Shown here: one piece after another, positions 37,624 to 43,600 of the stretch
Position numbering within the stretch: the stretch's first letter is position 1
How the letters are laid out: each line of letters opens with the position of its first letter
From: Escherichia coli
GTDB taxonomy: Bacteria > Pseudomonadota > Gammaproteobacteria > Enterobacterales > Enterobacteriaceae
Strand: one strand, 5' to 3'
Assembly: GCF_048403405.1 (NCBI RefSeq)
Contig: NZ_CP183129.1
DNA: 64,000 nt
Made by a program: the position numbers

Positions 37624-40600
37624 TAAATAACCCCGCTCTTACACATTCCAGCCCTGAAAAAGGGCATTACCAGAAACAAATCTCTATGGTTTTGCGTTTC
37701 TTTGCGAAGCCAACTCTATCTAATCATTAAGGAAATTATCTATGGGTACTATTGCAACTAAAAGCAAGAAAGCGGCTCGCATCGAGTCAGCCTTGCTGAA
37801 CAAACTGGCACTGATGGGGCAGAAGACATTCGCTCGAGCAATGGGGGTTCCTGAATATCAGGTAAGCAGATGGAAGAATGGTTTCTTCTCGCAGGTAAGC
37901 ATGATGCTGGCTGTTCTGGAATATGGAATCGAAGACGATGAAATGGCTGAATTGACTAAGCGGCTTGCCAATTACCTGACAAAAGAAAAAGCCCCGAAGA
38001 ACGGCGAATTCTTCGAGGCCTGATGTAGAAAGACTGGATCAATCCACAGGAGTAATTATGACAAAACAACTCAGTCCTTACCAGGACAAAATTCACAAAC
38101 ACATACTACGTGATCGCTTCCTGTCCAGCTTCAAGCAGCCTGGTCGATTCCTGGCTGAGTTGGAAAAAGTGAAGCTGATGCAGAAGGAGAAAGGTCATGA
38201 GTAATCTTGCAACCGTAACACATTTAAGGCCTTCACAACGGCCTGTGGAGCGTCGTGTGGCAGAAGTTGAAGATGGTTATACCCGTCTTGCAAATGCCCT
38301 GTATGAAGAGCTTATCGGCGCAGATTTAACGAAAAATCAGAGCAAGGTTGCCCACGCCATATGCCGTAAAACATACGGCTACGGTAAAAAGATGGATCGC
38401 ATTTCTGATAGTCAGTTAGCTCAAATTACCAGGCTGCCAAGACAGAAGGTAAACAAGGCCAAGAATGAGCTTATCGCGATGAAGGTTATCCTTCGCGAAG
38501 GCCAGCAAATCGGGCCTAACAAGAACATCGAAGAATGGCAAATCGAAGGGTGTCACTACTCTGGTGATAATGTCACTGCATTGGTGACAAAAAGTGTCAC
38601 CAAAACGGTGACAGCGCTGTCACCAAAACAGGGACACACAAAAGAAACTATTACAAAAGAAAAAAGAAATAATAAAAACACTATGTCCGAAAGTGTTCGG
38701 ACGGAGTGTGAAAAATCATCTGACCGTCACGAAGAAACCGACAAGGCATTCGAGGAAATATTCTGGTGTGCAGGCATGCGGAAAGCCGGGAAGAAAAACG
38801 CGGCTTCGGCATTCAGAACACAGTTCAGGGAATGGCGTAAAACTACCAGGGGTACGGCAAGCGAGTTTGCCACGATGCTGGCAGAAGACATCGCATGCAG
38901 GAATGGTAAGCAGTTCGGATTCGACAGGTTGTTACCATCGAGCTACCTGAACGGTCAACGCTGGAACGACGAGAAGCCAGAAACTATTCAACCACAATCC
39001 AAACCATCATCCGCAATCACCGTATCGAAAACTGGCTACGTGTTTTTCGACAGGTGAACCATGAAATCAAAAATCAAATCGCTACTGGTCGCTGGTTATA
39101 ACCACGGCTGGTTAAGTATTTCGTTTGTCGATTTCTGGTTTAAAAATCTCAATCTGAGGGAATCATGACACCAAGTGAACTTAGCGACCTGCTTTGGGCG
39201 CAGGTTGACAGGGTGGCTCCGCACCTGTTGCCAAACGGCAAGAAAGAGGGGCATGAGTGGGTTGCCGGTAACGTCAACGGTGACAAGGGAAACAGCCTTA
39301 AGGTCAACCTTAGCGGCAAGAAAAAATGGGCTGATTTCGCTGAGGGAGACGGCGGTGACATGCTTGATTTGTGGATGGCATGTCGTGGAATTAACCTGCA
39401 TCAGGCTATGCAGGAAGCGAAAGCCTTTCTCGGAATCAAGGATGACGATCACCATTTCGATGCCAAACGTGAGAAGAAATTCTCCAGACCTGATCGCAAG
39501 AAAATCGCCCGCTACGTTACCAGAACAGAATCCCATCTTGAGTACCTGCAATCGCGTGGCATATCGCCAGAAATCGTAAAGCGCTACGAGGTTGTCAGCG
39601 GCAAGGTGTGGAATGGAGAGCTGGAACTGGATGCTCTGGTGATTCCGTACAAACGCGATGGTGAGTTGTTGCAGGTCAAGCGAATCAGCACTGAGCGCCC
39701 GGACGGGAAGAAAGTCATTATGGCAGAAGGTGATTGCGAACCTTGTCTGTTCGGATGGCAGGCTCTGGACGCTGGCGTGAGGGCGGTTGTACTTTGCGAA
39801 GGCGAAATTGATTGTATGAGCTATGCGCAATACGGCATCTCGGCGTTATCCGTGCCGTTTGGTGGCGGGAAAGGCGCTAAACAGCAGTGGATTGAGTTTG
39901 AGTATCACAACCTCGACAGGTTTGAGGAAATATTCATCTCGATGGACGTTGATGATGTTGGTCGTGAAGCCGCAAGGGAAATCGCAAGCCGACTCGGTGA
40001 ACATCGTTGCCGTCTTGTTACTCTGCCGTACAAAGACATCAACGAATGCCTGATGAACGGTGTTACCGAGGATGAAATCTGGCAGTACATCGGCACGGCA
40101 TCCTACTTCGACCCTGAAGAACTCTACAGCGCGCGAGAGTTTTACCAGGACACTATCAACGCTTTCTACGGCAAGCAGCAGTATCTGTTTAATCCACCGT
40201 GGGAATCTCTGGTAGATAAATTCCAGTTCCGTGAGGCCGAGTTGACGCTGGTCAATGGTGTGAACGGTCACGGAAAAACGGAGGTTGTCGGGCATATGGC
40301 TCTTGAGGCAATGCGTCAGGGTGTGAAGACGTGCATCGCGTCACTTGAGCTGAAGCCTGGTATTCTCCTTAAGCGCCTTACCCGTCAGGCGACGTGCTGC
40401 AAGATGCCGCCAGTGCTGGAAATTGACTCTGCATTTAAATTTTATGACGAAAGACTTTGGGTGTTTGGCCTGACCGGAACGGCGAAAGCCGACAGGCTGA
40501 TCGAAATATTCGACTACGCTCGCCGCCGATACGGGATCCAGTTATTCATCATCGACAGCCTGATGAAATGTGGCATAGGCGACGATGACTATAACGGGCA

Positions 40601-43600
40601 GAAGGCGTTTGTTGACTCGATTTGCGACTTCAAAAACAAAACAAACTCCCACGTCATTCTCGTTACTCACTCGCGAAAAGGAGACAGCGAAGAAAAACCA
40701 ACCGGGAAAATGGACGTAAAAGGCTCTGGAGCGATAACAGACCTGACAGACAACCTTTTCATCATCTGGCGTAACAAGGCTCGCGAGAGAGCGTTACAGA
40801 GAGTTCAGAGTGGTGAAAAGATGTCAGAGAAGGACGAACAGCTACTGGCATCTCCGGCATCTGTTTTGATGCTTGAAAAACAACGTAACGGCGAAGGTTG
40901 GGAAGGTGGTGTCCCGTTGTTCCTTGACGAGCAATCGCACCAGTTCCTGCAACTTGAATCAGGATCGCCATATAGCTACATCGCCAATATGCCGAAATCG
41001 GAATATGACGAGGCGTGGAGACAGGAAAACGTGACGGAGTATTAAATGACCATCTACATCACTGAGCTGATAGCAGGCCTGCTGGTAATCGCAGGCCTTT
41101 TTATTTGGGGGAGGGTAAATCGTGGCTGAGTTTATGCTCGTCGCACTCAAATGCGTTGGCGTTGGATGGATTCTTCTGACGTTTTTTATTGTTCTGCATA
41201 GCTACATTCGCCTTGTGAATGACGGTAAAGATCCATGGTATACGTTGTTTGGCGCTGCATTTGTCTGGGTGATTATCGGTGTTATGCCTGTCGCTGTAGC
41301 AAAAATGGCGTGGCGTTTTGTGAGTTGAACTGAGGGTAATTATCGATGGACGAATCAAGAAAGCAGTTTGAAGAAAGTTGGTTGCGACGTGGAGGCGAAT
41401 CTTCAGACCTTATCCGTTACCCTGAAAATCACCATGAAATTGGCAGTGGTGATATTGGTGGTCAATACGTGATGGACGATGTTCAAGGCCACTGGCAAAC
41501 GTGGCAGGCATCGCGAGCAGCTATTGAAATAACCGCGCCAAAGTTTATCGACAGCAGAGAAGCATTAGCCAAAGGGTTTACTGTTGATTATTCCAATGGC
41601 TTCGGTGATGCAATGGATGCTTATGAGGAAAACATCCGCGCTGCTGGAATCAAAGTGAAGGAGTGAGCATGAGTCGACGAAGTAGCTTTTTGGGGTTTGT
41701 AATATTCCTGTCCTGCACTGGTTACATCGTAATCTGGTCAATTTCGAACATTGACCGTGGCTGGGAATATCTCATTGTAATGTTCTTTCCTTTGTTTCTT
41801 GGGTGGTACGCCGCAAGGTTGCTGGAAGAATGGGGTTACAGGCATAAAAAATAAAGGAGTATTCAGTGAAGCAAACAATCTTCCTCCGAACTAAGCAACA
41901 ACAGCAAGCCGCAATAAATGCCATCCTCGCAACACCACTCGATAAAGACAAGCCAGTCACCATCCGCATTACTGACTACAAGCGCAACCTTGACCAGAAC
42001 GCAAAATTTCACGTGATGCTGGCGGATATCGCTCGTCAGGTTCAATGGTGCGGCAAATGGTTAAAACCGGAACAATGGAAGGTTTTGTTGATTAGCGGTC
42101 ATGCAGTGGCAACAAACCTGGAAGCTGATGTTTTGCCCGGGCTTGAAGGCGAATACGTCAACATTCGCGAAAGCAGCGCGCAGATGAGTGTGAAGCGCAT
42201 GGCAAGTCTGATCGAGTACACAACAGCCTGGGCTATTGGTCAGGGTGTCAGATTTACCGACAGGAGGTACGAATGAGACGACAGCGACGAAGTTTCACCG
42301 ACATCATCTGCGAAAACTGCAAATACCTTCCAACGAAACGCTCCAGAAATAAACGCAAGCCAATCCCAAAAGAATCTGACGTAAAAACCTTCAACTACAC
42401 GGCTCACCTGTGGGATATCCGGTGGCTAAGACATCGTGCGAGGAAATGACAATGGATTATTCACAGTTAAGTGATTTTGAAATTAACAAGCGAGTGGCAA
42501 TTTGCTGTGGATTTGCTCCCGAAGATTGCGAAATAGCAAAGTTGGGAACATCAATCGTTGGTGTTGAGTGGGATGACGAAACTGGTTATGCAATAAAAAC
42601 GGTTGATTACTGTAAAAGCCCATCAGACGCAGAGCCGATTATCGTAGAGAACAGAATTGGCATTATTCCAGCGCCAGAAAATGGATTATGGAAGGCAGCG
42701 CATAGAAAAGTTGGCAGTGATAGTACCCCATATCATATGACTCAAGATGAAAACCCACTCCGCGCTGCCATGATTGTCTTTCTCATGATGCAGGACGCCA
42801 ATAATGCTTAGCCCATCCCAATCCCTCCAATACCAGAAAGAAAGCGTCGAGCGGGCTTTAACGTGCGCTAACTGCGGTCAGAAGCTACATGTGCTGGAAG
42901 TTCACGTGTGTGAGCACTGCTGCGCAGAACTGATGAGCGATCCGAATAGCTCAATGTACGAGGAAGAAGACGATGAGTGATTTCTCTGAGCTTATTTCCT
43001 TCAAAAAAGACAGAGAAGAAATGCGGACTGAATCTGTCTATTACGTTCAACACCGGAATAAACGCTCGGTGCTTGATCAGGAGCTGATTATTACCGGAGA
43101 CCTGGCATTCAGAACATATAAGGCCAGCATGGAAATGAAGGATTTCCCTAAATGTGGTTCTGAAAGAGAAGCCGCGTTAAAGCTGGCTGAGTGGATGCAG
43201 AGAATGGCTGCTGCAATTGAGAATTACTGGAGTGAACCATAATGGCTAACCTACGCAAAGAAGCGCGCGGCAGAGAATGCCAGGTACGTATTTACGGCAT
43301 ATGCAATGGCAATCCTGAAACTACAGTTCTGGCACATTACCGGATGGCTGGAATTTGCGGAGCGGGAATGAAGCCTGACGACCTGATCGGTGCATGGGCT
43401 TGTAGTGCGTGTCACGATGAAATCGACCGACGCACCCATAATCTCGACAACAAAGACGCCAGACTTTACCACCTCGAAGGCGTGATCAGAACGCAGGCGA
43501 TACTGCTGAGGGAGGGGAAGATTAAGTCATGAACGAATATCAGTTTGTGCTTCCATACCCGCCATCGGTGAATACCTACTGGCGAAGACGGGGAAGCCAA

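Follow-up and report, generated by a model that had tools for sequence, protein, structure and literature searches.

A lambda-style replication origin probably served by a phage-encoded primase-helicase in a P22-like prophage of Escherichia coli

Introduction

Genes 59-60-61 of phage ES18 form a replication module in which a lambda O-like initiator is followed by a 35-amino-acid protein and a primase-helicase, and the same three-gene arrangement is found in epsilon34 (genes 50-52), g341c, mEp043, Sf101 and vB_EcoP-720R6. The ES18 GenBank record describes gp59 as ‘similar to lambda gpO’, marks a region ‘similar to lambda ori’ and labels gp61 a ‘putative primase/helicase; similar to phage T7 gene 4’, and the pairing of an O-like initiator with a primase-helicase has published precedents (PMC2629481; PMC10307801). 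Here we analyze a member of this group from a 64,000-nucleotide stretch of Escherichia coli DNA (contig NZ_CP183129.1 of assembly GCF_048403405.1), hereafter the window, in which a lambdoid prophage has its early-right operon at 36.6-44.7 kb. This replication module, which belongs to a P22-like prophage with lambda immunity, probably combines a lambda-style theta origin with a phage-encoded replicative primase-helicase that serves it. It is likely that the helicase replaces host DnaB, and the balance tips slightly towards the view that the primase also replaces DnaG. As the module is already known and annotated in ES18 and mEp043, the novelty that remains is small, and lies in the 35-amino-acid protein, an adaptor domain that has no Pfam model and a primase domain that has lost its zinc site. 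The parts of the module are as follows.

38197..39057, plus strand: replication initiator, 286 amino acids (Pfam, NCBIfam, BLASTP, AlphaFold)
38551..38636: iteron array of four 19-bp inverted repeats, TGTCAC-N6-GGTGACA, at 38551-38569, 38571-38589, 38595-38613 and 38618-38636; predicted binding sites of the initiator N-terminal domain
38637..38677: A-rich tract, 41 bp, 83% A+T, with 29 A on the plus strand; aligns with the A/T-rich region of lambda ori
38678..38709: imperfect palindrome, two 14-nucleotide arms with a 4-nucleotide spacer, 86% complementary; at the site of the right-hand palindrome of lambda ori
39061..39168, plus strand: 35-amino-acid gene (MKSKIKSLLVAGYNHGWLSISFVDFWFKNLNLRES), orthologue of ES18 gp60 (PHROG 21848, expectation value (E) 4e-26)
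39165..41045, plus strand: gp4/Twinkle-type primase-helicase, 626 amino acids (Pfam, PHROG, phmmer, AlphaFold/Foldseek, alignment, and the ratio of nonsynonymous to synonymous substitution rates, dN/dS)

The window copy is closest to mEp043 and Sf101, which are 98.6% identical to it at the nucleotide level, share its N-terminal domain and iterons and show essentially no difference from it. ES18 is 88% identical (query positions 428-2845), has a gp61 of the same 626-residue length directly downstream and, like epsilon34, differs in carrying a lambda-type N-terminal domain with iterons of the form TCCCTC..GAGGGA, compared with TGTCAC..GTGACA in the window. All of these relatives contain the 35-amino-acid gene, and their initiator C-terminal domains are 97.6-100% identical to that of the window (for ES18 gp59, 97.6% over 124 amino acids).

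Two more distant systems are instructive for the division of labor between phage and host. Genes 18 and 12 of P22 also combine a lambdoid initiator and internal iterons with a phage helicase that makes host DnaB unnecessary, and this alternative is carried by the related prophage of E. coli EC28 considered below; unlike the window helicase, which is of the gp4 type and fused to a primase, gp12 is DnaB-type and contains no primase domain. P22 gp12 uses host DnaG (Wickner 1984, cited in PMC8022706). The P4 alpha protein, from a temperate element that depends on the polymerase of its host, resembles the window protein in joining a DnaG-type primase and a replicative helicase (for its domains, see PMC4889955), but its helicase belongs to superfamily 3 (D5-like) and has its own origin-binding domain, whereas the window module combines a superfamily 4 (SF4) helicase with a separate O-like origin binder.

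The initiator and its internal origin

The initiator consists of a lambda O-type N-terminal DNA-binding domain (residues 1 to about 115), a linker encoded by the origin (about 118-160) and a helical C-terminal domain of the ES18 type (about 175-260). An earlier note on this DNA, the original prediction, had placed an O-like initiator and a primase-helicase at the coordinates at which both open reading frames (ORFs) are indeed found, and its assignment of the initiator N-terminus is borne out by Phage_rep_O (PF04492; residues 20-114, E 1.1e-37, 128.8 bits against a cut-off of 28.7), by the NCBIfam model TIGR01610 (phage_O_Nterm; E 1.6e-30, 105 bits against 45.5) and by 49% identity to lambda O over residues 1-157 in BLASTP. 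Beyond residue 157 BLASTP found no significant similarity to lambda O, and the proposal that the C-terminal domain differs from that of lambda also holds for profiles: when 141 sequences of the ES18-type domain were compared with 46 of the lambda O domain by hhalign, remote homology was ruled out (probability 0.6%). The label ‘Primosomal protein I’ (DnaT), which appears in the annotation of phage Fraca and in PHROG 9327, was ruled out in the same way, with an hhalign probability of 0.2% against E. coli DnaT.

For the C-terminal domain AlphaFold predicts a bundle of three to four helices, with a predicted local distance difference test score (pLDDT) of 85.6 and no significant neighbour in the PDB. 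Word-indexed protein searches with the ES18-type and lambda-type C-terminal domains yielded chiefly near-identical fragments. An exhaustive representative search of a library of 1.8 billion proteins places 364 representatives (50% clustering, E <= 0.001) in this family, for which a Pfam scan found no model. The domain is nearly always C-terminal in proteins of 240-350 amino acids, and the N-termini joined to it vary, including HTH_36, Phage_rep_O, DUF1376 and DnaD_N.

Within the initiator gene, the iterons, the A-rich tract and the palindrome reproduce the tripartite layout of ori-lambda, and the spacing of the iterons (20, 24 and 23 bp) is exactly that of lambda. A search of both strands of the window for the iteron pattern with up to two mismatches gave 11 matches, eight of which are these four sites, compared with an average of 1.2 in shuffled sequence, where none of 100 shuffles reached 11. 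The internal iterons of the original prediction are thus present, in four copies, but the range it gave, 38548-38628, was a few bases off at its right end. By analogy with lambda, the initiator N-terminal domain would bind these repeats, and the A-rich tract is the predicted DNA-unwinding element.

The likeness to lambda therefore includes the O N-terminal domain, an origin within the O gene with its four iterons, A/T-rich tract and palindrome, the operon position after cro and cII, and a conserved pO/oop box upstream. The window module differs from lambda in the arms of its iterons, in a C-terminal domain without detectable homology, and in the replacement of P by the 35-amino-acid gene and a gp4-type primase-helicase.

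The primase-helicase

In the place of lambda P, as originally proposed, is a protein with a DnaG-type zinc-binding-like domain that has lost its zinc ligands (residues ~25-90), an RNA-polymerase/TOPRIM domain (~110-310), a linker and an SF4 RecA-type helicase domain (~350-600). The refuting test set for the original prediction was a profile search of this second gene for helicase and primase motifs, and such motifs were found: Pfam reports Toprim_2 (E 3e-12) together with AAA_25 and DnaB_C, the last at 23.8 bits and below its 27-bit cut-off, PHROG 239 ‘DNA primase/helicase’ matches with E 6.5e-171, and phmmer aligns the TOPRIM domain, linker and helicase to chains from crystal and cryo-EM structures of T7 gp4 (E 3e-23). 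When the AlphaFold model (pLDDT 83.8), in which the zinc-binding-like domain is a beta-ribbon plus helices, was compared with the PDB by Foldseek, T7 gp4 ranked first (5ikn and 6n9x, E 1.6e-25, target template-modelling score 0.66-0.71 over ~500 columns), followed by Twinkle (7t8c and 8e2l), with DnaB structures far lower. The likeness to T7 gp4 and Twinkle thus extends to domain order, catalytic residues, fold (Foldseek E 1e-25) and an acidic tail that ends in an aromatic residue, although identity is only ~25% and the window protein differs in its lack of zinc ligands, in ~50 extra residues at the N-terminus and in an insertion between helicase motif 4 and the arginine finger. The conserved acidic tail of the window protein ends in Tyr (..EYDEAWRQENVTEY) and recalls the polymerase-binding tail of gp4, a resemblance that is only an analogy.

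Residues expected of both activities are conserved in an alignment of 19 sequences from Enterobacteria, Vibrio, Pseudomonas and T7. The TOPRIM residues E212, E214, D216, D261, D263 and K290-D291 are invariant, with the acidic residues aligned residue for residue by phmmer to T7 E157, D207, D209 and D237, and the basic residues K172, R178 and K182 of the RNA-polymerase domain are invariant out to T7. In the helicase, G368, G370 and K371 of the Walker A motif (G368-x-G370-K371-T), the catalytic glutamate E395, the Walker B aspartate D464, and H502 and K505 of the His/Lys sensor are invariant, and R574 is nearly so, in a KQR context that can be compared with the arginine finger of T7 (KCR522). 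Relative to ES18, dN is 0.037 and dN/dS is 0.043 overall (0.05 in the N-terminal domain, 0.03 in the primase and 0.04 in the helicase).

The claim that lambda P has no counterpart here also stands, since no gene of the P, DnaC or DnaB type came up when the ORFs that separate O from ninB were scanned with Pfam and PHROG, and the same scans detected the P of phage PhiR12 and the DnaC-like loader of Skulduggery, which served as positive controls.

The primase-helicase of phage phi24B (HM208303, ~nucleotides 4109-5134 of the locus) contains a 342-residue insertion directly after the Walker A GK. The insertion, which is also present in Min27, Stx2a phages and a Cronobacter protein (P0012, 968 amino acids) and which the window copy does not have, starts with Ala-Cys, ends in ..THN followed by Thr and contains two LAGLIDADG-like motifs, a set of features that suggests an intein carrying a homing endonuclease.

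A 35-residue protein between initiator and helicase

The ORF at 39061-39168, which the original prediction had missed, as it had the loss of the zinc ligands discussed below, is taken here to be a real gene. It lies in the 107-bp gap between its neighbours, its stop shares the sequence ATGA with the primase-helicase start, and its product is identical to ES18 gp60 at 33 of 35 residues. Seven orthologues (from the window, ES18, phi24B, Fraca and three metagenomic or genomic loci) have the same length despite 25-41 nucleotide differences and share the pattern MK..IK..LI.GY.HGWL...FV..WF.K.NLR.., and dN/dS relative to phi24B is 0.28. The gene is present at all seven loci where the close C-terminal domain subfamily precedes the primase-helicase and absent from the Vibrio and Pseudomonas loci in which a primase-helicase follows other initiators.

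Its product is possibly a cofactor or adaptor. A bolder proposal, which we consider doubtful, is that it acts as an obligatory adaptor or minimal helicase loader that bridges the as yet undescribed C-terminal domain of the initiator to a gp4-type primase-helicase whose zinc-less domain still primes. If true, iteron origins would have a distinct route for the loading of ring helicases, and an E. coli DNA polymerase III replisome could be run without DnaB, DnaC or DnaG.

Exchange of origin and partner cassettes

Comparison of related phages revealed that the parts of this module occur in several combinations, as listed here by N-terminal domain and iterons, by C-terminal domain and partner genes, and by phage.

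O-like N-terminal domain with TGTCAC iterons; ES18-type C-terminal domain, 35-amino-acid gene and primase-helicase: the window, mEp043, Sf101
Lambda-type N-terminal domain with lambda iterons; ES18-type C-terminal domain, 35-amino-acid gene and primase-helicase: ES18, epsilon34
Unrelated HTH_36 domain with GGGGCAGGAGCTGCCCC repeats; ES18-type C-terminal domain, 35-amino-acid gene and primase-helicase: phi24B, Min27, Stx2a phages
O-like N-terminal domain with TGTCAC iterons (99.6% nucleotide identity to window 38197-38669); lambda-type C-terminal domain, P (97%) and Ren: PhiR12_1 to PhiR12_5
Lambda-type N-terminal domain; lambda-type C-terminal domain and P: lambda

The N-terminal regions of the epsilon34 and Scho1 initiators are 94% identical to that of lambda (PMC2629481). 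In PhiR12_1 (PV340549, locus 2601-4204) the N-terminal domain and iterons of the window type are fused to a lambda C-terminal domain, followed by P and Ren, and the junction lies in the A-rich tract, within the peptide it encodes (‘..TKETITKEKR’). Breakpoints in homology fall at the same tract, at query positions 473-477, and in megablast comparisons with phages the Stx2 phages and others align only from position 477 on, just past it. The chimeras and breakpoints suggest that the N-terminal domain and iterons form one cassette, that the C-terminal domain and its partner form another, and that the two recombine at the unwinding element. This agrees with the classical picture of lambda, in which O-N binds ori and O-C binds P.

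Seven loci were examined at which the C-terminal domain shares 50% identity or more with the window version, and each has a primase-helicase downstream. These sequence comparisons are suggestive of an ES18-type C-terminal domain that connects the origin complex to the primase-helicase, and the chimeras are the best available evidence for such a role.

Proposed mechanism and alternative explanations

On induction, transcription from pR would cross the origin and lead to production of the three proteins. The winged-helix N-terminal domain of the initiator would then occupy the four iterons in its own gene, and the resulting complex would melt the adjoining A-rich tract. At the step where lambda O-C binds P-DnaB, the ES18-type C-terminal domain is presumed to contact the phage gp4-like hexameric helicase and recruit it onto the single strands, possibly with help from the 35-residue protein, so neither a P- or DnaC-type loader nor DnaB would be needed. 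Rings of the gp4 type can load on single-stranded DNA by ring opening, with no dedicated loader. The TOPRIM primase half of the same protein would make primers, and the remaining steps would fall to host DNA polymerase III, single-stranded DNA-binding protein, gyrase and ligase. Since the prophage contains no polymerase-sized unexplained ORF, and no phage polymerase gene was seen, elongation must presumably be carried out by the host enzyme. In this respect the window prophage, a temperate phage with an initiator-defined theta origin and no polymerase of its own, differs from T7, which has a transcription-primed origin and its own polymerase. Replication that dispenses with DnaB or DnaG has precedents in T7 gp4 and in P4 alpha, the latter a functional one. 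Independence from both host proteins, as originally suggested, can be reasonably inferred, more strongly for DnaB than for DnaG.

Several observations weigh against this proposal, and the main caveat for priming by the 626-residue protein is the lost zinc site. The N-terminal ~90 residues are homologous to the zinc-binding domain of DnaG (TIGR01391 dnaG, E 1.6e-9, residues 26-143), with a weak and sub-threshold but in-register match to Zn_ribbon_DnaG (E 0.083), and all four DnaG zinc ligands (C40, H43, C61 and C64) are lost, being aligned with G35, N38, D57 and E60; moreover, no cysteine is conserved anywhere in the family in the 19-sequence alignment. The zinc-binding domain of T7 gp4 is needed for template-directed priming. 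Metazoan Twinkle, which is cysteine-less, lost these residues along with its primase activity and is primase-dead (PMC3610141). The 626-residue protein might therefore replace DnaB and its loader but act as a helicase only, with a primase half as dead as that of Twinkle, in which case replication would be DnaB-independent and either DnaG-dependent or primed by transcripts of the pR/oop type. We regard this as unlikely, since the acidic TOPRIM residues and K172, R178 and K182 are invariant as far as T7, whereas human Twinkle also lost TOPRIM motifs IV and V, which are intact in the window protein (PMC3610141). In addition, dN/dS values of 0.03-0.05 in the N-terminal and primase segments indicate strong purifying selection on the half of the protein that would have been abandoned. 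DnaG docks on the N-terminal domain of DnaB, and this domain was not found in the 626-residue protein, whose N-terminal half is the primase; recruitment of DnaG would thus need a new contact, which argues for priming by the fused primase.

Other points against the proposal concern the choice of partner. C-terminal domain members of 49% identity or less adjoin genes that are P-like, DnaC-like or unrecognized: a clear lambda P-like protein follows member P0194, weak P-like proteins (PHROG 109, E ~2e-4) follow a member in Vibrio phages, a DnaC-like loader does so in Pseudomonas phage Skulduggery, and proteins without a recognizable domain follow some others. The domain is therefore not intrinsically specific for the primase-helicase, and any specificity would belong to the subfamily, not to the fold as such. 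Vibrio phage 1.239.O and Pseudomonas phage CF208a, in turn, have the primase-helicase behind unrelated initiators and lack the 35-amino-acid gene there, and because neighbouring genes can be co-inherited by linkage alone, their co-inheritance is suggestive and no proof of contact. A literature search found no test of an ES18-type module in dnaB, dnaC or dnaG mutants. The varied partners, which include no recognizable helicase or loader after member P0187, could be accommodated if the initiator used the host DnaB system and the primase-helicase served a later stage, such as rolling-circle replication, recombination-dependent replication or fork restart; indeed, 34 of 314 lambdoid phages contain an O homologue only, with no helicase or loader, and must use the host DnaB system (PMC12315714). 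Such an accessory role is nevertheless very improbable, as the three genes are tightly packed, with the overlapping stop and start codons expected of one functional unit, the module occupies the exact O-P or gp18-gp12 position of related prophages at the same locus, and the close C-terminal subfamily precedes a primase-helicase without exception at the loci noted above. It is more improbable still that the module is an inert remnant of a prophage that is defective in this genome. The stretch from the ompH-like host gene to the early-left genes holds no integrase-sized ORF, but the three replication ORFs are intact and nearly identical to those of mEp043 and Sf101, which form plaques, and the prophage retains its immunity, nin, Q, lysis and P22-like structural genes.

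Setting of the module in the prophage

The replication genes are part of a lambda-like early-right operon, whose other landmarks are the following.

36612-37325, minus strand: cI, nearly identical to that of lambda
37373..37401, plus strand: pR-like promoter, TTGACT-17-GATAAT, flanked by the lambda-like cI and cro (10 of 12 positions match in a consensus scan)
37426-37626: lambda-like cro
37742-38023: cII
38058-38204: DUF2740 ORF, 48 amino acids (orf48)
41075..41098, plus strand: intrinsic terminator, 30 nucleotides past the primase-helicase stop, with an 8-bp stem containing six G-C pairs, then TTTTATTT

The pR-like promoter drives cro, cII, orf48, the O-like gene, the 35-amino-acid gene and the primase-helicase gene, and probably supplies transcription across the origin, a role assigned from lambda. 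The terminator would close off the replication module on its right side, before the nin region begins, in a position like that of tR2, and to the right of the primase-helicase gene are ninB, a rusA-like gene and Q. On the minus strand a strong terminator overlaps the cII end, and the elements at 38033-38065 and 38021-37989 (minus strand) together suggest an oop-like antisense RNA. Antisense to the primase-helicase gene and wholly within it is a 244-amino-acid ORF with a TTG start (39096-39830, minus strand), which is most likely a chance ORF. PADLOC made no defence-system call on the replication module and returned weak domain-level matches only, to DnaG-like and ATPase parts.

The immunity region (36165-37626) is of the lambda type, with cI, pR and cro nearly as in lambda, in a prophage whose structural half, to the right, matches the P22-like podoviruses phiv205-1, Kapi1 and CUS-3. 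In the slot downstream of cI that rexAB occupies in lambda, there is a 126-amino-acid ORF (36165-36545, minus strand; PHROG 16322), for which PADLOC gave no match. Genes for tRNA-Asn(GTT) and tRNA-Thr(TGT) lie directly downstream of the Q antiterminator gene (44971-45126, plus strand), and an Rfam scan of 34-46 kb detected these two tRNAs and nothing else.

To the left of the prophage are E. coli genes for the adhesin UpaE and an OmpH-family protein. The 2637-amino-acid ORF at 19687-27600 (plus strand) has a strong positive GC skew, and it corresponds in E. coli EC28 to UpaE, a phase-variable autotransporter adhesin. EC28 (NZ_CP049101, compared with window 27500-37667) also has, at this upaE-ompH locus, a related prophage with the same cI and cro, but homology ends after cro, and that prophage carries a ‘replication protein + replicative DNA helicase’ module of the DnaB type instead. 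The interval without an integrase-sized ORF in the window is 28178-29600, which follows the ompH-like gene (27648-28178); at the corresponding site of the early-left end in the EC28 relative a torI/xis-like gene comes first, and the integrase of the window prophage may be absent or located elsewhere.

Prevalence and biological meaning

The module was found in 297 of 5426 complete E. coli genomes (5.5%), and it is also carried by Stx2a phages such as phi24B and Min27. The significance of the present analysis is limited, in that it shows lambdoid phages swapping replication parts at the origin itself: origin specificity, provided by the N-terminal domain and iterons, and replisome recruitment, provided by the C-terminal domain and its partner, recombine separately and are joined in the A-rich tract. 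Because the module is common, a mode of replication that is independent of the host helicase could affect prophage induction and the copy number of toxin genes, and it could alter sensitivity to defences or drugs whose action depends on DnaB or DnaG.

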